Positions 3,031-59,845 of a stretch of DNA of 64,000 bases are shown piece by piece. How positions within the stretch are numbered: position 1 is the stretch's first letter; the number at the start of each line of letters is the position of its first letter. A model generated the notes under the pieces. That model had not been told where the DNA came from and ran no database searches. It was given only the letters and a program-made list of their open reading frames with translations. The stretch covers positions 1 through 64,000 of the IMG/VR virus record IMGVR_UViG_3300025015_000024. One strand, given 5' to 3'. Both the position numbers and the translations under genes were made by a program. Source of the stretch: an uncultured virus (IMG/VR IMGVR_UViG_3300025015_000024). Lineage: Duplodnaviria > Heunggongvirae > Uroviricota > Caudoviricetes.

Positions 3031-3062
3031 TTTGGAAATGTCAATTATTTTACTTATATTTG
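3031..3062 (+). promoter_or_regulatory. Bacteroidota-type housekeeping promoter (TTTG ... TTTTACTTAnnTTTG)
   Basis: TTTGGAAATGTCAATTATTTTACTTATATTTG; similar copies near 9371-9401, 13740-13770, 21252-21283, 23179-23209, 23477, 23935-23966, 24896, 55275 and 57926, with reverse copies near 33511, 35179, 47471 and 47769. The -7 TAnnTTTG consensus is established for Bacteroidota. Confidence 0.8.
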
Positions 3063-22548: not shown

Positions 22549-23166
22549 ATGAATAATTTTTTAAAAAATTTTAGAAGATTATCTGGAATTAAAGAACTTT
22601 CATTAACTGAAGAATTTACTGGTTTCAAAAGAATTCATGTTTTAGAAACCGTTGGCAGAGGAATATCCTCTTTACAGCTTAACGGTATTTCTATTAACAG
22701 AGATAATTCAAAAGATAATGTAATAAATTATCAAATAAAAGAAGGAATATTAACAGAAGAAAAAGAATTTGTTTTCCCGGAAAATCAAAAAGGTGGAATT
22801 ATTGTTTTTTCTATTGATGTTAATAAAAAGTTTGAATATAAAAATTTAATTGATAAAATTAAAGAATGGTTTAAACAAAAATATCAATCATTATTAAACA
22901 GAATATTTAAAGATAAAAAATTATCAAAAATTATAAGTAAACATGAAGAAATAACTGGATTTAGCATCGGTAAATTTTTTAAAGGAAGATATAAATCTCC
23001 TAATGGAAAACATTATGATGAAACAAGTACATCAATTGAAATAATTGGTATTGGTTCTGAATTATTGGAAATTGTTGCATCAAAAATTGCTAGTGAATTT
23101 AATCAGGAAAGTGTATTAGTAAAAGATTATATAAAAAATGAAATATATTTAGCAAATAAAAAATAA
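22549..23166 (+). CDS. Hypothetical protein, possibly head-packaged
   Basis: N-terminal FRRLSGIKE..LTE; C-terminal FNQESVLVKD. Confidence 0.7.
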   Translation: MNNFLKNFRRLSGIKELSLTEEFTGFKRIHVLETVGRGISSLQLNGISINRDNSKDNVINYQIKEGILTEEKEFVFPENQKGGIIVFSIDVNKKFEYKNLIDKIKEWFKQKYQSLLNRIFKDKKLSKIISKHEEITGFSIGKFFKGRYKSPNGKHYDETSTSIEIIGIGSELLEIVASKIASEFNQESVLVKDYIKNEIYLANKK

Positions 23167-23240
23167 TTGATAAATAATTTGGATATGTCATTTATTTTAC
23201 TTACCTTTGTATTTTAAAATTAAAATTAACTATTATTTTT

Positions 23241-23441
23241 ATGGATACAAATATAAAAGAACAAATTGATAATATGGATTATGAATCAATGTTAAGATTA
23301 TGGAGATTTAGTCCTGCTGGCCATTCATTATTTCAAGGAGAATCTGGTGAATATTTCAGTAAAAATATGAAAGAAAAACGTGATAAATTACCAAATGAAG
23401 AACATCCAATCATATCAAAAAGAATAGGTTGGGAAAAATAA
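23241..23441 (+). CDS. Hypothetical phage protein
   Basis: YESMLRLWRF..G..FQG..G.YF..SKRIGW motif; own host-type promoter. Confidence 0.7.
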   Translation: MDTNIKEQIDNMDYESMLRLWRFSPAGHSLFQGESGEYFSKNMKEKRDKLPNEEHPIISKRIGWEK

Positions 23442-23508
23442 TTCATTTTATACTTGTTTATTTTAATTATTTTACTTACTTTTGTATCTTGAAAGTATTT
23501 ATAATAAA

Positions 23509-23580
23509 ATGAAAAACATAAATTTACATAATCTCCCACAGCTACCCAGTAATAAACATTGGGGTGGAAAACTTATGTAA
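23509..23580 (+). CDS. Leader peptide 1, MKNINLHNLPQLPSNKHWGGKLM (tRNA array 1 attenuator)
   Basis: Follows TACTTTTG (23477) and TATTTATA (23496); control codons CTC CCA CAG CTA CCC (L-P-Q-L-P). Confidence 0.8.
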   Translation: MKNINLHNLPQLPSNKHWGGKLM

Positions 23581-23607
23581 AAAAATTAAAAAAATACAAT
23601 AGATTAT

Positions 23608-23647
23608 AAACCCTGATGTTCAATAAAAAAGTCATCAGGGTTTTTTT
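23608..23647 (+). terminator. Attenuator terminator 1
   Basis: AAACCCTGATG/CATCAGGG-T7; its 5' arm can instead pair with leader segment AACATTGGGGT (23555-23565). Confidence 0.85.
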
Positions 23648-23666
23648 ATTGATAAAAAATTAAAAT

Positions 23667-23738
23667 ATGGTGTTAGTTCAGAGGCAGAACGCTACATTTG
23701 GGATGTAGAGGTCGAGATATCATAATTCTCACACCATA
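23667..23738 (+). tRNA. tRNA-Pro(UGG)
   Basis: Cloverleaf; anticodon arm CTACA-TTTGGGA-TGTAG. Confidence 0.85.
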
Positions 23739-23755
23739 CAAAAAAATTAAAAAAT

Positions 23756-23829
23756 ATTCCAGTATCCCAATTGGTAGAGGATATAGTATTAGAAACTATA
23801 AAGTGAGAGTTCGAATCTCTCCTGGAGTA
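23756..23829 (+). tRNA. tRNA-Leu(UAG), short variable loop
   Basis: ATAGT-ATTAGAA-ACTAT; T arm GAGAG-TTCGAAT-CTCTC. Confidence 0.8.
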
Positions 23830-23830
23830 C

Positions 23831-23904
23831 TACCGGATCTTCTAATTTTGGCAGGAAAGCACCCTTTGAAGGTGATAATATAGGTTAGATCCCTACTCTG
23901 GTAA
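23831..23904 (+). tRNA. tRNA-Gln(UUG)
   Basis: Acceptor TACCGGA/TCTGGTA; CACC-CTTTGAA-GGTG. Confidence 0.75.
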
Positions 23905-24008
23905 CTACAAAAATTAAAAAAATATTAGATAATACTTGTTTATTTCAATTATTTTACTTACCTTTGTATTCTAAATATCTGAATTAATAACTTAAAAACC
24001 TAAAAAAA

Positions 24009-24215
24009 ATGAAAGATAAACCACAAAAGCCGAAATTGAATACTACTGTTGTTGGCGGTAGTTTTTATTGGGTTAGACCATTTCAAGGAGATGAATTTGA
24101 ACCTGCAAAGGCTAGAGATAGATATGAGAATGGAGAGCTATATTTCTGCTTTACAAACGGTAGTGTGTTGGAAGTAGAGCGCGCTTGGGAGGTTGAGCCA
24201 TTAAATTTCAGCTAA
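24009..24215 (+). CDS. Hypothetical protein (cassette-like)
   Basis: Short, GC-richer ORF containing GTTGGC and ending in GCTAAC. Confidence 0.55.
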   Translation: MKDKPQKPKLNTTVVGGSFYWVRPFQGDEFEPAKARDRYENGELYFCFTNGSVLEVERAWEVEPLNFS

Positions 24216-24270
24216 CGGTTTTGGGATTGCTGTCAGGTTTCTTACGGATTAACAACTAAAATATAATTAT

Positions 24271-24510
24271 ATGAACGAAGAATTAAGAGTGATATCACAA
24301 AGCTATTGCGGAATGACACCGAAAGATAAAGGATGCAAAACTTGGGCTGAGATGCAACAGAAAATGGCAGATGAATTGGAATGTGTAGTAAAAAATTATA
24401 TTGTCCAAGCAAATGTTAGCGGACACTTGTGCCAATGTGGAAATCCGATTGCCAGAACGGAGTGCGATGATTGTTTAGACAATAGAATTAGATGCAAGTT
24501 AGAAAATTAG
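24271..24510 (+). CDS. Hypothetical protein with Cys-rich C-terminus (cassette-like)
   Basis: CQCG...CDDC; internal GTTAGC. Confidence 0.5.
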   Translation: MNEELRVISQSYCGMTPKDKGCKTWAEMQQKMADELECVVKNYIVQANVSGHLCQCGNPIARTECDDCLDNRIRCKLEN

Positions 24511-24592
24511 GTACAATTTCCGCTAACGCATCGGAGATTTATGAAGGATTTTTTACGACTTAAACTACAAATTTAAAAATATAAAAAACACA

Positions 24593-24835
24593 ATGACAAA
24601 AGAAGAATTGATTACAAAGCAACAACTGGAAATAGAGCAGTATCAAATTGCAATAGAAGAAAACAAAAAACTGCTGAAAAAGATAAAACTAAATTTCATT
24701 GCGATAGGGATGCCGTTAAATGATAACCTATTGCAATTTGATAAGAAGCAGATAAAATGGTGCTTGGAAACATTAGAAATGATTGAACAAATTAACTGTA
24801 CTGTGCTTGACTATGAGGGTGTGTGGGCGGGTTAA
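24593..24835 (+). CDS. Hypothetical protein
   Basis: IGMPLNDNLLQF motif; ORF in the array. Confidence 0.6.
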   Translation: MTKEELITKQQLEIEQYQIAIEENKKLLKKIKLNFIAIGMPLNDNLLQFDKKQIKWCLETLEMIEQINCTVLDYEGVWAG

Positions 24836-24928
24836 AAAGTTTGCGTATAAGTAGGGGATTGTCGCAATATTATTGATTTTTTAAAATATTTTACTTATAT
24901 TTGTACTTTGAAACTATTTATTAAGAAA

Positions 24929-25009
24929 ATGAAAAACTGGTTAAACATATCAATTCATAGTAATAGTCGTAATATTATACGACCTGGAAGGGGTATGTTT
25001 ATACAATAA
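24929..25009 (+). CDS. Leader peptide 2, MKNWLNISIHSNSRNIIRPGRGMFIQ (tRNA array 2 attenuator)
   Basis: Follows TATATTTG (24896) and TATTTAT; 12 of codons 3-16 are read by the downstream tRNAs. Confidence 0.85.
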   Translation: MKNWLNISIHSNSRNIIRPGRGMFIQ

Positions 25010-25030
25010 TCATTTTTAAAAGATATATAA

Positions 25031-25065
25031 AAAACCCCTTGGATTAAGTTTTTAAGGGGTTTTTT
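25031..25065 (+). terminator. Attenuator terminator 2
   Basis: AAAACCCCTT/AAGGGG-T6; leader segment AAGGGGT (24988-24994) competes for ACCCCTT. Confidence 0.85.
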
Positions 25066-25070
25066 AATTT

Positions 25071-25144
25071 TGGTCTGTAACTCAGAAGTTTAGAGTGCCA
25101 AGCCGTTAACTTGGAAGCCGGGATGGCAGAATTCCCCAGACCAG
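25071..25144 (+). tRNA. tRNA-Asn(GUU)
   Basis: CCAAG-CCGTTAA-CTTGG; acceptor TGGTCTG/CAGACCA. Confidence 0.8.
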
Positions 25145-25160
25145 CTGGAAATATAAAAAA

Positions 25161-25244
25161 GGAAAAGGACTGGCATGGACGAAGAGATAGTCTTGAAAAC
25201 TATTGTGTGTAAAAACATCGTGAGTTCGATTCTCACCTTTTCCG
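25161..25244 (+). tRNA. tRNA-Ser(UGA)
   Basis: ATAGT-CTTGAAA-ACTAT, long variable arm, G73. Confidence 0.8.
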
Positions 25245-25258
25245 CTTTTTTAAAAAAC

Positions 25259-25329
25259 AGGTTCTTGGTGTAATGGCAGCATCTGAAATTCCAAACTTCA
25301 GGGTATGGGTTCGAATCCTATAAAACTTG
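25259..25329 (+). tRNA. tRNA-Trp(CCA)
   Basis: TGAAA-TTCCAAA-CTTCA; GGTTCGAATCC T arm. Confidence 0.75.
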
Positions 25330-25330
25330 C

Positions 25331-25416
25331 GGAAAATAAACCAATCAGGGTATTGGGCCTATTTGCTAAATAGTGCGTTCTGTAAAAAGAATGTGTTTCA
25401 AATACTCTGTCCTCCG
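25331..25416 (+). tRNA. tRNA-Ser(GCU), divergent
   Basis: CTAT-TTGCTAA-ATAG with a long variable arm; several acceptor and T-stem mismatches. Confidence 0.6.
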
Positions 25417-25427
25417 CAAAATTATAT

Positions 25428-25500
25428 TGACCAGTAGCTCAATTGGTGGAGCAACATTCTGATGAAATGAAGGTCGAAGGTTCAAATCCTTCCTGGTCAA
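25428..25500 (+). tRNA. tRNA-Ile(GAU)
   Basis: CATT-CTGATGA-AATG; canonical D and T arms. Confidence 0.8.
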
Positions 25501-25509
25501 CAAAAAACT

Positions 25510-25582
25510 ATTTTCTTAGTTTAACTGGATAAAATATTTGGCTACGAACCAAAAGATGAGAGTTCGAATCTTTCAGAAAATA
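25510..25582 (+). tRNA. tRNA-Arg(ACG)
   Basis: TTTGG-CTACGAA-CCAAA. Confidence 0.85.
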
Positions 25583-25597
25583 CATTATAATTAATAT

Positions 25598-25672
25598 GGT
25601 GCTATTGTTGTAAATTGGTGAGCATAGAAAACTGTGAATTTTCAGGTAAAGGTTCAATTCCTTTATGGCACC
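25598..25672 (+). tRNA. tRNA-His(GUG)
   Basis: GAAAA-CTGTGAA-TTTTC; encoded G-1:C73. Confidence 0.85.
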
Positions 25673-25680
25673 CAATAATC

Positions 25681-26373
25681 TTAATTTAATAATTCAAAAA
25701 CTTCTTTTATTCCTTCACTAGCTTTTTTATTAATATAAGTAATTTCCATTCCAATTTTACTTAAACTTTTAACTGGGTTTGGATCAATAAAAAATACTTC
25801 ACAAGATAATTTTATATAAGTTAACATTTGAAAACAATAATGGATAAATAAAGAAGTTCCAATTATTATTAAATAATCACATTTTTCAATTGTTTTATAT
25901 GATTCTTCAATATTACAAGGATATTCCCCAAACCAAACAACATGAGGTCTTAATTGTGAGCCATTTTCACATTTATCACCCAACTTTATATCATTATAAC
26001 CACAATCATATATTAAATCTTCATCTGATGAGCTTTGAGATTTTGTAAGTTCCCCATGAATGTGAATAACATTTGAAGAGCCACCCCTTTCATGTAAATT
26101 ATCAACATTTTGAGTTATCACGGTAACATCAAAATTATTTTCAAGTTCTGCAATTAATTTATGCGCCAGATTTGGTTTTACATTTTCCAGTTGCCTTCTT
26201 CTTTCGTTATAAAAATCTAAAACTTTTTGTTTATCTTTGTGCCATGCACTTATTGTTGCAACATCATCTATTTTATGGTTTAACCATAAACCATTTTTTC
26301 CTGTCCTGAATGTTGGGATGCCAGATTCCTCACTTACGCCCGCACCAGTAAAAACAACTATTTTCTTTTTCAT
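25681..26373 (-). CDS. cobB: Sir2-family NAD-dependent deacylase (CobB-like)
   Basis: FTGAGVSEESGIPTFR, TQNVDNLHERGG, HIHG, RPHVVWFGE and IGTS motifs. Confidence 0.92.
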   Translation of the reverse strand: MKKKIVVFTGAGVSEESGIPTFRTGKNGLWLNHKIDDVATISAWHKDKQKVLDFYNERRRQLENVKPNLAHKLIAELENNFDVTVITQNVDNLHERGGSSNVIHIHGELTKSQSSSDEDLIYDCGYNDIKLGDKCENGSQLRPHVVWFGEYPCNIEESYKTIEKCDYLIIIGTSLFIHYCFQMLTYIKLSCEVFFIDPNPVKSLSKIGMEITYINKKASEGIKEVFELLN

Positions 26374-26434
26374 TTATTTGTTTTTTTAATAAATATTTAT
26401 AAATAAGAATATATTTATATAATGATATAATAAC

Positions 26435-27133
26435 ATGAAAGATCAAATATCCAGAATGAAAGAATTGATTAATTATAATATTAATTATGGTTATATTAAT
26501 GAAGAAATGGAAACTTCTGATAATTTTATAAATAATACATTTCAAGAATATAAAGAAAAAAATGCAATTGCAGTTGAGGTTAGCATTGATTCAGAAAATG
26601 ATGTTGATTACAGATTAGCACTTATATTAAGATTTACAAATGTTAGTGGATATGATGAATTAGTATTTTATTTTTCATTAATAGATAAAAATAATCAGTT
26701 TGTAAAAGGAAAAGAAAGTATTTATAATAGAGAAGAAGCAAATAAATATTTACCAAAAAAATTACAAGGTAGTATTTCTTTTTTTACTAAACTAAAAGAA
26801 ATGTTTAAAAAATTAATAAATATGGAAACACCAGATATATTTTTTATGGAAACATATGAAGATTTTATAAGTGAAAGATTATTAAATCCTTATAGAAATT
26901 TAATTCCATTAATATTGGAAAATGGATATCTTTTGGAAAAAGAAGGAATATCCCATGATAAAAAGAAATATTATTGGAAATTTGTAAAAAAAACAAATCA
27001 ACAAATAAAAGAAGATAAGGAATTTGAATATTTTATAAATAATTTTAAAAAAGATGATGAATATTGGGAAAAATTTAATAAAGAATCAAGAATAATTATT
27101 GAGAAAATGTATGGAAATAAAAAAATTATTTAA
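26435..27133 (+). CDS. Putative head-packaged protein
   Basis: N-terminal MKDQISRMKELINY...INE matches the scaffold C-terminus; preceded by TATTTATA. Confidence 0.7.
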   Translation: MKDQISRMKELINYNINYGYINEEMETSDNFINNTFQEYKEKNAIAVEVSIDSENDVDYRLALILRFTNVSGYDELVFYFSLIDKNNQFVKGKESIYNREEANKYLPKKLQGSISFFTKLKEMFKKLINMETPDIFFMETYEDFISERLLNPYRNLIPLILENGYLLEKEGISHDKKKYYWKFVKKTNQQIKEDKEFEYFINNFKKDDEYWEKFNKESRIIIEKMYGNKKII

Positions 27134-30564: not shown

Positions 30565-31293
30565 ATGAACCCCAGACTAAGAAAAACTCTTTTATTCAAT
30601 ACTAAGAAATTTAAGAATCAATATAGCTTTCTCTTTGATGGAATTAATGAATATATTGAAAGAAATAATGCAATAATCAATGGAACTCCTGCAACTTTTA
30701 GTGCGTGGATAAAGTTAAGTAGTTTAAATTTAGTTCAAAGAATAACCACAATAAATCAAAAATCTACTACTACTAATGTATTATCAATCTTTATTGATGC
30801 AAATAATAAGGCCAATGCACAGCATTTTGATGTGGATGGTGTAGCGGCATTAAGTACAACTGTTTTGACAACCAATACTTGGTATCATATAGTCGGGGTT
30901 TTTACAAGTGATTCTTCAAGAACTATTTACGTAAATGGGGTTTCGGAAAATACAAATACAACAGTTCAATCCGCAATGACTGGATTAGATTACACATCTT
31001 TTGGTTATATTGCTTGGACCACTAATATTCAGTTTTTTAATGGAAATATTGATGAAGTAGGTTTTTTTAACACCAATTTAACCGCAGCACAAATAACTGA
31101 AATATATAATAATGGCAAGCCCAAAGACTTAAAAAAACATAGTATGGTAAATAATCTTGTTAGCTATTTTAGAATGGGAGATAAATCAACATGGGATGGA
31201 ACAAATTGGACATTAGTGGATCAAAAAGGAACTAATAATGGAACAAGTGTGAACATGGAATATAATGACAGGAGTCTTGATGTAAAATTATAA
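30565..31293 (+). CDS. LamG/concanavalin A-like domain virion protein
   Basis: FDGINEY, TFSAWIK, WYHIVGV, IYVNG and FNGNIDEV motifs. Confidence 0.85.
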   Translation: MNPRLRKTLLFNTKKFKNQYSFLFDGINEYIERNNAIINGTPATFSAWIKLSSLNLVQRITTINQKSTTTNVLSIFIDANNKANAQHFDVDGVAALSTTVLTTNTWYHIVGVFTSDSSRTIYVNGVSENTNTTVQSAMTGLDYTSFGYIAWTTNIQFFNGNIDEVGFFNTNLTAAQITEIYNNGKPKDLKKHSMVNNLVSYFRMGDKSTWDGTNWTLVDQKGTNNGTSVNMEYNDRSLDVKL

Positions 31294-33503: not shown

Positions 33504-33585
33504 CATAATACAAAGGTAAGTAAAATAAATGACATTTTCAAGTAAAAAATGAATTATTTTTAAAATAAATAGATATTTATAATAA
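33504..33585. repeat. Back-to-back early/late promoter cassette
   Basis: About 80-bp near-identical copy at 35172-35253; partial copies near 47469 and 47767. Confidence 0.8.
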
Positions 33586-53469: not shown

Positions 53470-55164
53470 ATGGGACAAATTTTAAATTCAGGAGAAGTTG
53501 GAAATATTGGGTTGAGGCAACTCAAAGAACAACGAGAACTGATAACACAAAAATGGACTAAATTAGGTCTTTTAGAAGATCTAAAAGGTCATATAAAAGA
53601 TAATATTGCTCAGTTGTTTGAAAATCAAGCATCTTACATGTTGAATGAATCAACAACCGCATCTAATTCAGGTGCGTTTGAAACTGTTGCGTTTCCTATT
53701 ATACGTAGGGTCTTTTCAAAATTGCTTGCTAATGAGATTGTATCAGTACAAGCTCTTAATTTACCAATTGGTAAACTGTTCTATTTGAATCCAAAAGTAT
53801 CAACGAGAGTAGATACTGGTTCAACAGGACACACATCACCGGATGGTGCTTATTCTAATGCAGCCGATTTAACAGCTGGTTCAGGAACTCAATTTGAAAC
53901 TAAATCATTGTACGATAGTTTCTATGCAACCGCAAATAATGATGAGGGTACTTCTTTATTTGATAGAAGTAAAGGGGCATTCACATCAACAAATGCAGTT
54001 CTTACTGGTTCTACACCGCAATCTGGGGTAACTAAATTCAAAACATTTCAATTAACAGGATTTACAACTACAAGTGATGGTAAGTTGATTGGTCCTGCTG
54101 GTGTTCCTATGGACACTGAAGAATTTTTAGCTAGTCTAAAAGTTACGGCAGACCAAAATTTATCAGGCGGATCTGGTTTCCAAGGTTCAAGTATTACCGC
54201 AGGAGACCCAATTCCTTTCAGAGTTAAAACTCAACAATACGGAAGAGAAATTGTAAGTTCTAATGGTGTAATTGATGTTGAGATTGATTTAACATATCCA
54301 GCAGCTAATGGTTATTCGGCATTTACATCATATGTTGATCAGGCTGGTACACCTTCAGCAACTAATAAAATTTTATTTACAGCTAACTACAGAACTTATT
54401 CTGATTTAGAACAAGATTCTGAAATGGCCGAAGTAACATTTAGTCTTGATGAAGTTACGGTATCTGTAACAACTCGTAAAATGAGAGCACAATGGACACC
54501 TGAACTTGCACAAGACGTATCAGCATTCCATAATATAGATGCAGAGGCTGAACTTACTGCATTGTTGTCAGAACAAATGGCAGCTGAAATTGACAGGGAA
54601 ATCCTTAGAGATCTTAGAAGAGGTGCAGCTTGGACATTACGTTGGGATTATAATGGTTTGAGAAACCAAACTACTCAGTATCACGGTACTCAGAAAGATT
54701 GGAATCAAACATTGTTAACCAAAATAAATCAAATTTCAGCTCAAATTCATAAAGCAACACTGAGAGGTGGAGCTTCTTGGATAGTTATATCACCTGAAAT
54801 TTCAGCAGTATTAGATGATTTGGAATATTTCCACGTATCAAATGCTGATCCTGAACAGGACAAATATAACATGGGTATTGAAAGAGTTGGATCTCTTGGT
54901 GGAAGATATCAAGTATATCGTGATCCTTACGCTCCAGCTAACACAATGTTAATTGGACATAAAGGAAATTCGATATTGGAAGCTGGATATATATATGCTC
55001 CATATGTTCCAATGCAATTGACACCTACAATGTATAATCCATTTGACTTTAAACCAATTAAGGGGGTAATGACAAGATATGCCAAGAAAATGATAAATAA
55101 CAGGTTCTATGGCAAGGTCTTCTGTGATGGATTAACAACTTTTGACCCAACTGAACTTAGATAA
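53470..55164 (+). CDS. Major capsid protein (T4 gp23-like)
   Basis: FPIIRRV, RKMRAQWTPELAQD, EIDREI, YAPYVP and GVMTRYA motifs; propeptide ending LNE. Confidence 0.96.
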   Translation: MGQILNSGEVGNIGLRQLKEQRELITQKWTKLGLLEDLKGHIKDNIAQLFENQASYMLNESTTASNSGAFETVAFPIIRRVFSKLLANEIVSVQALNLPIGKLFYLNPKVSTRVDTGSTGHTSPDGAYSNAADLTAGSGTQFETKSLYDSFYATANNDEGTSLFDRSKGAFTSTNAVLTGSTPQSGVTKFKTFQLTGFTTTSDGKLIGPAGVPMDTEEFLASLKVTADQNLSGGSGFQGSSITAGDPIPFRVKTQQYGREIVSSNGVIDVEIDLTYPAANGYSAFTSYVDQAGTPSATNKILFTANYRTYSDLEQDSEMAEVTFSLDEVTVSVTTRKMRAQWTPELAQDVSAFHNIDAEAELTALLSEQMAAEIDREILRDLRRGAAWTLRWDYNGLRNQTTQYHGTQKDWNQTLLTKINQISAQIHKATLRGGASWIVISPEISAVLDDLEYFHVSNADPEQDKYNMGIERVGSLGGRYQVYRDPYAPANTMLIGHKGNSILEAGYIYAPYVPMQLTPTMYNPFDFKPIKGVMTRYAKKMINNRFYGKVFCDGLTTFDPTELR

Positions 55165-57877: not shown

Positions 57878-57949
57878 TTAAATAATTTTTTTAATTAATC
57901 TATTGACTTTTTAGAATATTTTATTTATCTTTGTATTTATAATAATATA

Positions 57950-58030
57950 ATGAAACAGATAACGACATATTTTGGTGGAAATGGTGATGGCACAACTGAT
58001 GCGATAACCATAATGGCCAGATTATGTTAA
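57950..58030 (+). CDS. Leader peptide 3, MKQITTYFGGNGDGTTDAITIMARLC (tRNA array 3 attenuator)
   Basis: Follows TATCTTTG (57926) and TATTTATA (57934); F-G-G-N-G-D-G-T-T-D-A control region. Confidence 0.8.
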   Translation: MKQITTYFGGNGDGTTDAITIMARLC

Positions 58031-58051
58031 AAATATAAATAACAACTATAT

Positions 58052-58086
58052 AAAAACCCTGGCTAATAAAAAGTCAGGGTTTTTTT
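58052..58086 (+). terminator. Attenuator terminator 3
   Basis: AAAAACCCTGGCT/AGTCAGGG-T7; leader segment TGGCCAG (58014-58020) can pair with CTGGCTA (58059-58065). Confidence 0.85.
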
Positions 58087-58101
58087 GTTTATATGATAAA
58101 T

Positions 58102-58178
58102 GGTGATACAGCATATTGGTGCATGTTGCTTCCCTGTCACGGAAGAGATTGTCGGTTCAAATCCGTCTATCACCGCCA
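58102..58178 (+). tRNA. tRNA-Asp(GUC)
   Basis: CTTCC-CTGTCAC-GGAAG; G73 and encoded CCA. Confidence 0.85.
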
Positions 58179-58179
58179 A

Positions 58180-58252
58180 GGAACTTTGGTGTAGGTGGTC
58201 TGCACAACTGTTTGAAGCACAGTGGGTCTTTGTTCGATTCAAAGAGGTTCCA
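58180..58252 (+). tRNA. tRNA-Phe(GAA)
   Basis: ACTGT-TTGAAGC-ACAGT. Confidence 0.8.
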
Positions 58253-58272
58253 CAAGGTTATTCATTTTTACA

Positions 58273-59502
58273 TCAAACATTACATTTGAGTTCAAATGAT
58301 TTTACAAATTCAACTTTGTATGGGTTAAACCCTAACCCTATATTCCTTATGTTACTTATGAATTTTTCACATTCAGGAATTACTTTTGATTTTAACATTA
58401 TTCCAATTGCACCATTAACATCAGCATTTATTGTTTTGCCAATACTACTTAAAAATAAACCACGCTTTATTCTTTTGCCAAGATAAATTGCTTGTTTTTG
58501 TATCGGTTCAAATGCCAAATGGTCGCATTTACTGGTATAACTTTCTTCCTGCTCAACAAGTTTTATGCTGTTGAGTTCTAACTTATATTTTATTTTATCT
58601 ATAAGTTTGGCATGAGGGATAGAAACAAAATTCTGGTTATTACGGCTACCAATATTTATTTTCTTCTTCCAATGTTCATTTTTACCGATAACAACTGTCC
58701 CAATATTATACTTTAAACAGTATTTAAGAATGAAATCGCCTACCTGGTGCATTGCATTTTCTATCTTGTTATTCCTGTCAAAAGTTAATTTATTTATTCT
58801 GTTTGACGTCCCTTTATTACCAACATAACTCATTAACTTGGCTCGCTTTTTATTAAAATACGCATTGATGGATTTTAATCCTCTACCGTTGATAATGAAA
58901 GGATTATTACCGACATTATCTATTGCTGTGATAAGATTGTTTAATCCCAAATCAATGCTTAATACATTTTCTTCTTTTATTTTTTCATGTTTTACCTCCT
59001 TTTTTTCATAGACAACTTCTATTACAAAACAAGTTGCTTGTGGAATTATTCTCACTTGTGATATATTATCTACTTTTGTTTTTAATGGTTGAATATTTGC
59101 TTGTTTTGGAAAATGTATAAGTCCCCCTTTTAAATTAACTTGCTGATTAGTGAAAATGCAAATAGAATATCCAGCCTTATCTTTGTATTTTGGTTGCTTA
59201 GGGTTTCCTTTAAATTTGCTTGGGCATTTTTTATATTCTTTTAATGCTTTGAAATATGACTTCCAGTTCTTAAAAAGTAATTTTATTATTTGCTGCGATG
59301 TTTGTGCCGGCAATGCCCTATAATCTTCCTGGTTAAATTCAGCAAGCAATTTAGATAATTCATATTCCTCAAATTTCTGTATATTACCAAAAAATGCTTG
59401 CCGTTTGTGATAATTACAAAAATTATACAATCTGGCTGATTTAAAACAAATATCCTCTATTGCTTTATCGTTTATCCTAATATGTCGCTCTACGAGTTGC
59501 AT
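58273..59502 (-). mobile_element. tnpB: TnpB, intact, inserted inside tRNA array 3
   Basis: MQLVERH start; SIDLGLNN, EESYTSKC and NADVNGA motifs. Confidence 0.92.
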
Positions 59503-59621
59503 TATTTATATAAAACTTAAAGTTTTACACTTATAAATATCTTTCTAAAATAAAAAACTCAATAAAATGAATACATAAGAAATAAATAATATCAAAAATT
59601 ACTATTTATATAAGATAATGT

Positions 59622-59697
59622 GCATCAGTAGCTCAATTGGTAGAGCGCCGGTCTTCCAAATCGGAGGTTGTGGGATCATAGCCCATCTGATGCTCCA
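59622..59697 (+). tRNA. tRNA-Gly(UCC)
   Basis: CCGGT-CTTCCAA-ATCGG; U73 and encoded CCA. Confidence 0.88.
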
Positions 59698-59712
59698 GAT
59701 TAAATAAAATAT

Positions 59713-59785
59713 GGGGGTACATGTACCAAGGCTGGCGAAGAGCATTTGCAATGCTTTTGGGTGGATTGGATTTCCACTATCTCCA
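59713..59785 (+). tRNA. tRNA-Ala(UGC)
   Basis: GAGCA-TTTGCAA-TGCTT; G3.U70, A73. Confidence 0.8.
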
Positions 59786-59845
59786 CTAAATATATAAATG
59801 ATTTCTTTTTCAATCATCAAACTATTTATATAAAAATATATTCTT

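Follow-up and report, generated by a model that had tools for sequence, protein, structure and literature searches.

A short leader reading frame that lists the tRNAs of its own downstream array: a probable attenuator in an uncultured tailed phage

A transfer RNA (tRNA) array of the uncultured caudoviricete IMGVR_UViG_3300025015_000024 is preceded by a small open reading frame (ORF) and an intrinsic terminator, and most codons in the first part of this ORF are those read by the tRNAs of that array. The DNA analysed here (the window) is 64,000 nucleotides (nt) long and comprises the first 64 kilobases (kb) of a 76.8-kb IMG/VR virus record with a CheckV completeness of 28%. Judged from the sequence, the unit in question (unit 2, positions 24873-25673) is probably a ribosome-mediated, or leader-peptide, transcription attenuator controlling a phage tRNA array. 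Such an attenuator would probably give multi-input (OR) control of tRNA transcription, the tRNAs being made only upon slow decoding of the listed codons. Unit 2 consists of a promoter, a 26-codon ORF (leader 2), an intrinsic terminator, and the tRNA array (array 2), in this order and all contiguous. The positions of these and other features are given in Table 1.

Leader 2 starts 26 nt past the -7 box of the promoter, behind a presumed transcription start, and is the sole ATG ORF between promoter and terminator with a stop 20-45 nt before the terminator stem. Only 4 nt separate the T-run of the terminator from the first tRNA of array 2, and a promoter motif scan from the terminator to the end of the array found no motif inside the array. 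Codons 3-16 read exactly as quoted in the original prediction, which was made from the sequence of the window and according to which 12 of these 14 codons are decoded by seven downstream tRNAs. Six of the seven tRNAs are supported, but tRNA-Ser (GCU) is doubtful. ARAGORN at default settings detected four of them (Trp, Ile, Arg, and His). The Ser-GCU candidate was called only with relaxed ARAGORN, a setting that yields 41 extra tRNA calls across the record; its acceptor stem has two A-C mismatches, and Rfam gave no tRNA match at E ≤ 10 over 25331-25417. The figure of 12 of 14 therefore stands with Ser-GCU counted and drops to 10 of 14 without it, because this tRNA may not be real. The single Arg codon of the block is indeed CGT in a genome that prefers AGA, as had been pointed out: the long ORFs of the phage contain 419 AGA and 38 CGT codons, and CGN accounts for 87 of their 594 Arg codons (78 of 594 for CGT, CGC, and CGA, which are read by the ACG tRNA).

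The seven codon sets of array 2 make up 23.9% of the codons in the long ORFs of the phage. When random 25-codon ORFs were drawn from phage codon usage, 14 of 1,000,000 had 12 or more matches within a stretch of 14 codons; all seven sets were represented in 940 of 1,000,000, and a single ORF in 1,000,000 did so in addition to reaching at least 12 of 14. Among real 14-codon windows in the long ORFs, 4 of 17,632 reached 12 matches. With only six sets (without Ser-GCU), at least 10 of 14 matches were found in 660 of 1,000,000 random ORFs.

The leader RNA was then considered as a switch. The segment AAGGGGT at 24988-24994 duplicates part of the 3' arm of the terminator (25054-25060), and it was expected to be held otherwise in a leader hairpin. 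Both statements were borne out: all pairs between TAAACATATC (24942-24951) and GGTATGTTTA (24992-25001), as well as those between GTCGTA and TACGAC, are present in the minimum-energy fold, which has an energy of -47 kcal/mol (z = -6.37; 0 of 200 shuffles fold as well). The inner hairpin GTCGTA/TACGAC is possibly an RNA polymerase pause hairpin. When no ribosome is present, region 1 pairs with region 2 (1:2 pairing), the 5' arm of the terminator is free, and the antiterminator has a probability of 0.00-0.01. This anti-antiterminator pairing is found in all three leaders of the window, namely leader 2 and the leaders of two sister units (units 1 and 3).

Since an equilibrium fold with a ribosome footprint flips leader 1 only, nascent-transcript folds were used for leaders 2 and 3. 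These included only the RNA downstream of the stalled ribosome up to the terminator loop, with the ribosome edge 12 or 15 nt past the codon in the aminoacyl site (A-site). With the ribosome stalled at A-site codons 1-16 of leader 2, the antiterminator probability was 0.5-0.9; with the A-site at codon 17 onward, it was at most 0.1. The antiterminator consists of 24988-24994 paired with 25034-25040 and 24998-25003 paired with 25026-25031 (-10.1 kcal/mol). The sensing window of leader 2 and its matched codons share exactly the same end. In silico, the OR-gate logic of the original prediction holds, in that a stall at any of codons 1-16 yields the antiterminator and the parts are mutually consistent; the logic would be OR because a stall at any matched codon acts alike. 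Unit 2 shows in silico the features of an attenuator: a leader ORF, cognate codons, a terminator, a position-dependent antiterminator, and the 1:2 pairing.

The following course of events may be proposed for unit 2. Transcription would start at the Bacteroidota-type promoter, and a ribosome would translate the 26-codon leader. If codons 3-16 are decoded fast, the ribosome would reach codon 17 or beyond, or the stop, and would cover region 2 (24987-25003); the terminator (25028-25066) would then form, and RNA polymerase would halt 4 nt before tRNA-Asn. If charged tRNA is scarce for any listed codon, slow decoding would stall the ribosome over region 1 and leave region 2 free. The free AAGGGGU would pair with ACCCCUU in the 5' arm of the terminator before the 3' arm is made, and the polymerase would enter the seven-tRNA array. 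With no translation, regions 1 and 2 would pair and the terminator would form. Because the products would be the tRNAs that relieve the stall, the arrangement would act as negative feedback, with the listed isoacceptors combined by OR logic. We infer the translation of leader 2, the kinetic win of the antiterminator, and the physiological trigger. The gate may fire if any one of the tRNAs is lost, as originally suggested, and the natural trigger could equally be low tRNA supply or amino-acid shortage.

A terminator/antiterminator upstream of translation-related genes, with tRNAs as the relevant ligands, could also suggest a ribosome-independent switch, in which tRNAs would attach directly to the leader RNA through codon-anticodon pairing, much as in a T-box, and thereby control the terminator. 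We regard this explanation as barely credible. An Rfam scan of 23000-27000 at E ≤ 1 detected neither a T-box nor any known leader family (His_leader, Trp_leader, Thr_leader, Leu_leader, and similar), and no specifier loop or T-box sequence was evident. Furthermore, the matched triplets follow the frame of an ORF that runs from ATG to stop, and the other frames lose the match. The only non-tRNA Rfam match on leader 2 was rli40 (28.6 versus 100 bits), which was rejected since it covers merely the terminator hairpin.

The two sister units have the same layout with different codon lists. In leader 1, codons 9-13 are CTC CCA CAG CTA CCC, ahead of tRNAs Pro-UGG, Leu-UAG, and Gln-UUG; in leader 3, codons 8-23 include one Phe, four Gly, two Asp, and two Ala codons, ahead of tRNAs Asp, Phe, and Gly and a weak Ala candidate. 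Before Leu-UAG, leader 1 has CTC and CTA; in phage ORFs, TTA represents 942 of the 1,531 Leu codons. In the equilibrium fold of leader 1, the terminator probability is about 0.9 but goes down to 0.14 with the A-site at codons 9-11, and is 0.23 at codon 12. When each of the three leaders was scored against each of the three arrays, the matrix was diagonal-dominant (3.4, 3.3, and 2.2 on the diagonal; -2.3 to 1.4 off the diagonal).

These lists bear on another explanation, namely a genuine attenuator that responds to overall translational capacity or to a lack of amino acids, so that any slowdown induces it and the codon list merely mirrors the demand of the phage. The folds agree with this explanation in that a stall anywhere in codons 1-16 gives the antiterminator irrespective of the codon, and unmatched codons are present (TTA and ATA in leader 2; Thr five times in leader 3). 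On the other hand, the leaders of one genome carry different lists, each fitting its own array in the above matrix, and rare codons fit the isoacceptor present: CGT in leader 2, CTC and CTA before Leu-UAG, and AGG before Arg-CCU in a related IMG/VR locus (L020). We consider such a general sensor unlikely.

The original prediction had made it a check on itself that homologous leaders should track the content of their arrays. Outside the two sister leaders, this was found in phages of Cellulophaga (phi19:1) and Tenacibaculum (Gundel_1) and in T4-like jumbo relatives, although exceptions exist. Phage phi19:1 was reached by a weak DNA match of the tRNA-Arg gene. It carries a promoter-like box, an ORF (MNNNTIHIQRLPQPKRFGEFAVYGSDGLIG, then stop), a terminator, and an array of tRNAs Pro, Gln, His, Leu-UAG, and Arg-ACG. 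Seven of the eight codons in the leader block CAT ATT CAA CGA CTT CCG CAA CCG (H I Q R L P Q P) match this array. The tRNA-Pro (UGG) gene, to which the two CCG codons of the leader point, is not annotated in GenBank; it was detected by ARAGORN and by Rfam (43.5 bits) at 2633-2706 of locus L013 (about 31057-31130 of the record).

Gundel_1 has two leader units. The first leader (MKTKLYSYSCFSSWFKNRAG, then stop; Y S Y S C F S S W F) precedes candidates for tRNA-Tyr (GUA) and tRNA-Trp (CCA), followed by Phe, Ser-UGA, Cys-GCA, and Ser-GCU. The two candidates (L014:1155-1223 and 1231-1298) score 27.8 and 25.7 bits, slightly below the Rfam cut-off of 29; these tRNA-like genes are unannotated and occupy the gap behind the terminator of the first leader. 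The second leader (MKTNNLHIQQNNLPVFLEGFLYM, then stop; Q Q N N L P) precedes an inserted HNH gene and then tRNAs Pro, Gln, CAU, Asn, and Leu-UAG. The HNH endonuclease gene (L014:1886-2392) lies between the terminator of this leader and the array, and overlaps the start of tRNA-Pro. Under a wider decoding rule, the two Gundel_1 leaders gave 10 and 12 matches in frame versus 1 and 6 when read one base out of frame.

Searching IMG/VR with a tRNA-Leu pattern returned 26 loci, among which a script that uses structure only found leaders in L017, L020 (two), and L029; L020 has an AGG codon before Arg-CCU. The same script detected twelve more leaders in four (G001, G002, G003, and G005) of five T4-like relatives picked by capsid similarity. 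Among these leaders, HIQPQHQPPQ precedes Pro/His/Gln, LDILVVLSVAVLLWDDAAEE precedes Asp/Glu/Val/Leu/Ala/Trp, and YYYTKKSYKK precedes Lys/Tyr. The 357-kb relative G003 (L151-L152) has 65 Rfam tRNA matches, arranged in blocks by amino-acid theme: Pro/His/Gln; Asp/Glu/Val/Leu/Ala/Trp; Lys/Tyr; and Thr/Cys/Asn/Ile/Ser/Phe/Gly/Arg. A leader listing the corresponding theme stands at the head of every block. In related or co-retrieved contigs we also observed tRNAs with a CUA anticodon (amber suppressors, designated 'Pyl' by ARAGORN) at L016:2524-2599, L152:11408, and L155:16001, which hint at TAG reassignment or suppression in those phages.

For pooled statistics, a leader was defined as an ATG ORF of 10-50 codons with its stop 20-45 nt before a hairpin and T-run just upstream of a tRNA. 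This gave 23 leaders, including the three of the window and the two of Gundel_1, which were picked by eye and all conform to the rule; seven ORFs in other frames near the same terminators that failed the spacing, and the duplicate loci L027, L034, and L035, were dropped. The sample was ascertained through the tRNA-Leu pattern and capsid relatives. Under the wider decoding rule, the fraction of codons in the whole ORF that match the leader's own array was 0.45 in frame versus 0.18 (+1) and 0.21 (+2), with Wilcoxon P values of 2e-7 and 2e-5, respectively; under strict wobble it was 0.39 versus 0.14 and 0.18. Random re-pairing of leaders and arrays reached the observed score in 0 of 200,000 trials. 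For 17 of the 23 leaders (15 under strict wobble), their own array was the best of all 23. From the leader stop to the first base of the terminator stem, the distance was 23-41 nt, mostly 26-31 nt (window, L013, L014, L017, L020, L029, L040, and L151-L159), and this spacing could serve as a search rule because it is constant. Furthermore, ten curated leaders were folded, and an antiterminator was present in all ten. In these leaders, 89 of 143 codons inside the structural sensing window matched versus 25 of 97 outside (Fisher, 1.9e-8).

Arg codons were counted by hand. Leader 2, the phi19:1 leader, and L156 have Arg-ACG as the only Arg tRNA in their arrays, and they use CGN for four of six Arg codons; L157 is a looser fit, its array also having a TCT tRNA. 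The sole array with only Arg-CCU has a leader that uses AGG.

The pooled results can be set against the view that the ORF is incidental, the hairpin and T-run being an ordinary leaky terminator or insulator and the tRNAs arising from constitutive read-through. Small ORFs abound in AT-rich DNA (88 that are 20 amino acids or longer in 8 kb), and Asn, Ile, and Ser codons are common. Nevertheless, this view leaves the frame-specific match in 23 leaders and the failure of all permutations without a cause, as well as the rarity of 12 of 14 matches in random ORFs, the sensing window that ends where the matches end in all ten curated leaders, and the constant spacing between stop and terminator. We hold it to be highly unlikely. 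A functional peptide is likewise conceivable, in which case the composition rather than the decoding of the ORF would matter and its place before tRNAs would be coincidental or serve co-expression; all leaders start with M-K/R/N, and many are partly hydrophobic. The peptide sequences vary between phages, however, with only the match to the own array conserved, and the antiterminator strand occupies the 3' halves of the ORFs. The chance that the peptide itself is the functional product seems very remote.

Several observations weigh against the attenuator explanation. A look-up of RNA runs covering 23400-25700 returned none. As to folding, in full-transcript equilibrium the terminators of leaders 2 and 3 persist for every ribosome position (probability 0.98 and 0.84-0.90, respectively), and the antiterminator fold is worth about -10 kcal/mol versus about -19 kcal/mol for the terminator. 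Since the terminator wins at equilibrium in both leaders, the switch would have to be kinetic, as in classical attenuators. Five of the ten curated leaders, those of the Gundel type among them, lack the 1:2 hairpin, with a ribosome-free antiterminator probability of 0.72-0.98; hence the design is not uniform, and the untranslated default state varies between phages. As to the codons of unit 2, the Ser-GCU tRNA is doubtful, TTA and ATA have no cognate tRNA in array 2, and Asn, Ile, and Ser codons are common in a 25% G+C genome, where the background match rate is 0.24; for leader 2 alone, the binomial P over the whole ORF is a modest 2e-3. Leader 1 also holds codons for Asn (four), His (two), Trp, Ser, and Ile, which fit array 2, 1.5 kb downstream. 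They may be left over from an earlier make-up of the array, an idea based on the Pro/His/Gln leader family of the relatives. Leader 3 has five Thr codons (ACG ACA ACA ACT ACC), for which the 76.8-kb fragment (28% complete) yielded no tRNA-Thr; its gene could be located in the portion of the genome absent from the record, or could have disappeared with a TnpB insertion in array 3.

Other phages also provide such observations. The ORF selected by rule in L040 is unmatched (2 of 43 codons), and most tRNA-Leu-pattern loci have no leader under the strict structural rule. In the T4-like relatives, most internal sub-blocks of large arrays have no leader, the Pro/Gln/His leader of G002 has Leu codons before an array without a Leu tRNA, and the Leu/Asp/Glu leader of G001 retains Ala and Trp codons.

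Table 1 Features of the three tRNA units (positions in the window)
Feature	Position	Strand	Evidence or remark
Unit 2
Promoter, presumably Bacteroidota type: TTG (24873-24875) and TATATTTG (24896-24903)	24873-24903	+	sequence, 8-copy alignment, motif scan
Leader 2 ORF, 26 codons and stop: MKNWLNISIHSNSRNIIRPGRGMFIQ (ATG 24929, TAA 25009)	24929-25009	+	sequence
Regulatory codons 3-16 of leader 2	24935-24976	+	12 of 14 read by array 2 tRNAs (not TTA, ATA)
Region 1 (TAAACATATC), pairs with region 2 in ribosome-free RNA	24942-24951	+	minimum-energy fold
Inner hairpin GTCGTA (24966-24971)/TACGAC (24978-24983), inside the 1:2 structure	24966-24983	+	minimum-energy fold
Region 2, antiterminator strand: AAGGGGT (24988-24994) and UUUAUA (24998-25003); alternative partner region 1	24987-25003	+	fold
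Intrinsic terminator: 16-base-pair stem, 7-nt loop, T-run 25060-25066	25028-25066	+	fold
Terminator 5' arm (region 3)	25028-25043	+	
Terminator 3' arm (region 4)	25051-25066	+	
tRNA-Asn (GUU), unusual T loop	25071-25144	+	Rfam tRNA 39.1 bits (cut-off 29); missed by ARAGORN
tRNA-Ser (UGA), long variable arm	25161-25245	+	good cloverleaf with relaxed ARAGORN only; Rfam tRNA-Sec 37.2 versus 47 bits, sub-threshold
tRNA-Trp (CCA)	25259-25330	+	ARAGORN default and Rfam
Candidate tRNA-Ser (GCU), weak, possibly degenerate	25331-25417	+	relaxed ARAGORN only
tRNA-Ile (GAU)	25428-25501	+	ARAGORN default and Rfam
tRNA-Arg (ACG)	25510-25583	+	ARAGORN default and Rfam
tRNA-His (GUG)	25599-25673	+	ARAGORN default and Rfam
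Unit 1	23454-23905	+	
Promoter of unit 1	23454-23484	+	
Leader 1 ORF, 23 codons: MKNINLHNLPQLPSNKHWGGKLM, then stop	23509-23580	+	
Terminator of unit 1	23597-23651	+	
tRNA-Pro (UGG)	23667-23738	+	
tRNA-Leu (UAG)	23756-23830	+	
tRNA-Gln (UUG)	23831-23905	+	
Unit 3	57903-59786	+	
Promoter of unit 3	57903-57933	+	
Leader 3 ORF: MKQITTYFGGNGDGTTDAITIMARLC, then stop	57950-58030	+	
Terminator of unit 3	58053-58083	+	
tRNA-Asp (GUC)	58102-58178	+	
tRNA-Phe (GAA)	58180-58253	+	
tRNA-Gly (UCC)	59622-59697	+	
Candidate tRNA-Ala (UGC), weak	59715-59786	+	

The genome that carries these units has a G+C content of 25.3%, and its major capsid protein (53470-55164) is a member of the T4 Gp23 family (PF07068). 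The block heading unit 2 (TTG, about 18 nt, TAnnTTTGTA) has a copy at 8 places in the record; in an alignment of the 8 copies, the TTG and TTTGT columns are invariant, and a motif scan agrees. We take this block to be a Bacteroidota-type -33/-7 promoter, and on this ground the host of the phage is probably a member of Bacteroidota. Strongly conserved promoter-like blocks (TTG, about 18 nt, TATTTTACTTAnnTTTGTA) were seen at 3032, 9371, 13740, 21253, 23179, 23454, 23936, 24873, and 57903 on the plus strand and at 33511, 35179, 47471, and 47769 on the minus strand, among other places. Only three copies head tRNA leaders, the remaining ones lying upstream of protein genes.

A Sir2-family gene on the minus strand (25681-26373; Pfam 5e-41) is convergent on the end of array 2. 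Array 3 is split between tRNA-Phe and tRNA-Gly by a TnpB-like gene of 409 amino acids (58273-59502, minus strand; Pfam OrfB_IS605 8.5e-16, Cas12f1-like TNB 2.5e-8), which resembles the insertion of a mobile element into a tRNA array. An IMG/VR search with two flanking proteins retrieved only contigs 100% identical to the window and therefore gave no information on variation of the window leaders. The 80 loci of capsid relatives (Gp23 family) contained 0 tRNAs within 8 kb on each side, which indicates that the position of array 3 is not conserved. When Sir2 neighbours were searched in metagenome contigs, 5 of 80 loci had any tRNA and 0 of 80 had a rule-conforming leader; accordingly, no close homologue of leader 2 was found there, and the Sir2 relatives do not lie beside tRNA arrays.

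Leader-peptide attenuation is classically known from amino-acid operons of enterobacteria, in which the ilvGMEDA leader has Ile, Leu, and Val codons and the thr leader has Thr and Ile codons. The phage leaders resemble these two in having a short ORF with codons for more than one amino acid and a predicted alternation of terminator and antiterminator, with an anti-antiterminator hairpin, that would be decided by ribosome position. They differ in that they would regulate tRNAs instead of biosynthetic enzymes, list up to seven isoacceptors mostly by single codons and not by runs, choose codons according to the isoacceptor (CGT and not AGA; both Ser boxes), and stand in a phage genome behind a Bacteroidota-type promoter. 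The trp, his, leu, and pheA leaders, and the pheST leader of a tRNA synthetase operon, sense the supply of charged tRNA through ribosome stalling. As the phage leaders would be, pheST is a case of attenuation controlling a component of the translation apparatus; unlike them, all five have one amino-acid input with tandem codons, and the genes that they control serve to synthesise the amino acid or to charge the tRNA instead of encoding the tRNA itself. T-box riboswitches bind uncharged tRNA directly and without a ribosome, one tRNA per element, by means of a conserved T-box sequence and a specifier loop. The state of a specific tRNA drives their terminator/antiterminator decision, as it would in the phage leaders; no T-box features were detected in leader 2 (Rfam, E ≤ 1).

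Phage tRNA genes are usually regarded either as constitutive helpers in matters of codon usage or as substitutes for tRNAs that host defences have destroyed, and to our knowledge little is known about the control of their expression. Amino-acid operons of Flavobacterium psychrophilum reportedly use leader-peptide attenuation (PMC9723704), which makes the mechanism plausible in a flavobacterial host; for Bacteroides, short leader ORFs have been noted (PMC7366714). No description of leader-peptide control of tRNA genes was found among titles and abstract openings, a body of literature in which subscription journals are mostly uncovered. These units would differ from known attenuators in the product they regulate (tRNAs), in naming as many as seven isoacceptors mostly by one codon each, and in residing in a phage.

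A further step, possible though doubtful, would be to regard the arrays as sensors of host decoding damage. They would stay silent until a listed isoacceptor becomes limiting, for example after cleavage by a host anticodon nuclease, and would then act as an inducible counter-defence or repair and not as constitutive adaptations to codon usage. This design would be widespread among Bacteroidota phages, T4-like jumbo phages included.

The leader codon lists would help in detecting phage tRNAs that are degenerate or lack annotation, for instance the tRNA-Pro of phi19:1, and the idea is directly testable because two cultured phage-host pairs carry the design, Cellulophaga baltica #19 with phi19:1 and Tenacibaculum sp. 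AHE14PA with Gundel_1. If the attenuator reading is true, a textbook mechanism would gain a new regulated class and a simple multi-input feedback circuit, and the tRNAs that share a transcription unit could be predicted by reading the sequence. The phage would measure decoding speed isoacceptor by isoacceptor and make its tRNAs only on demand.

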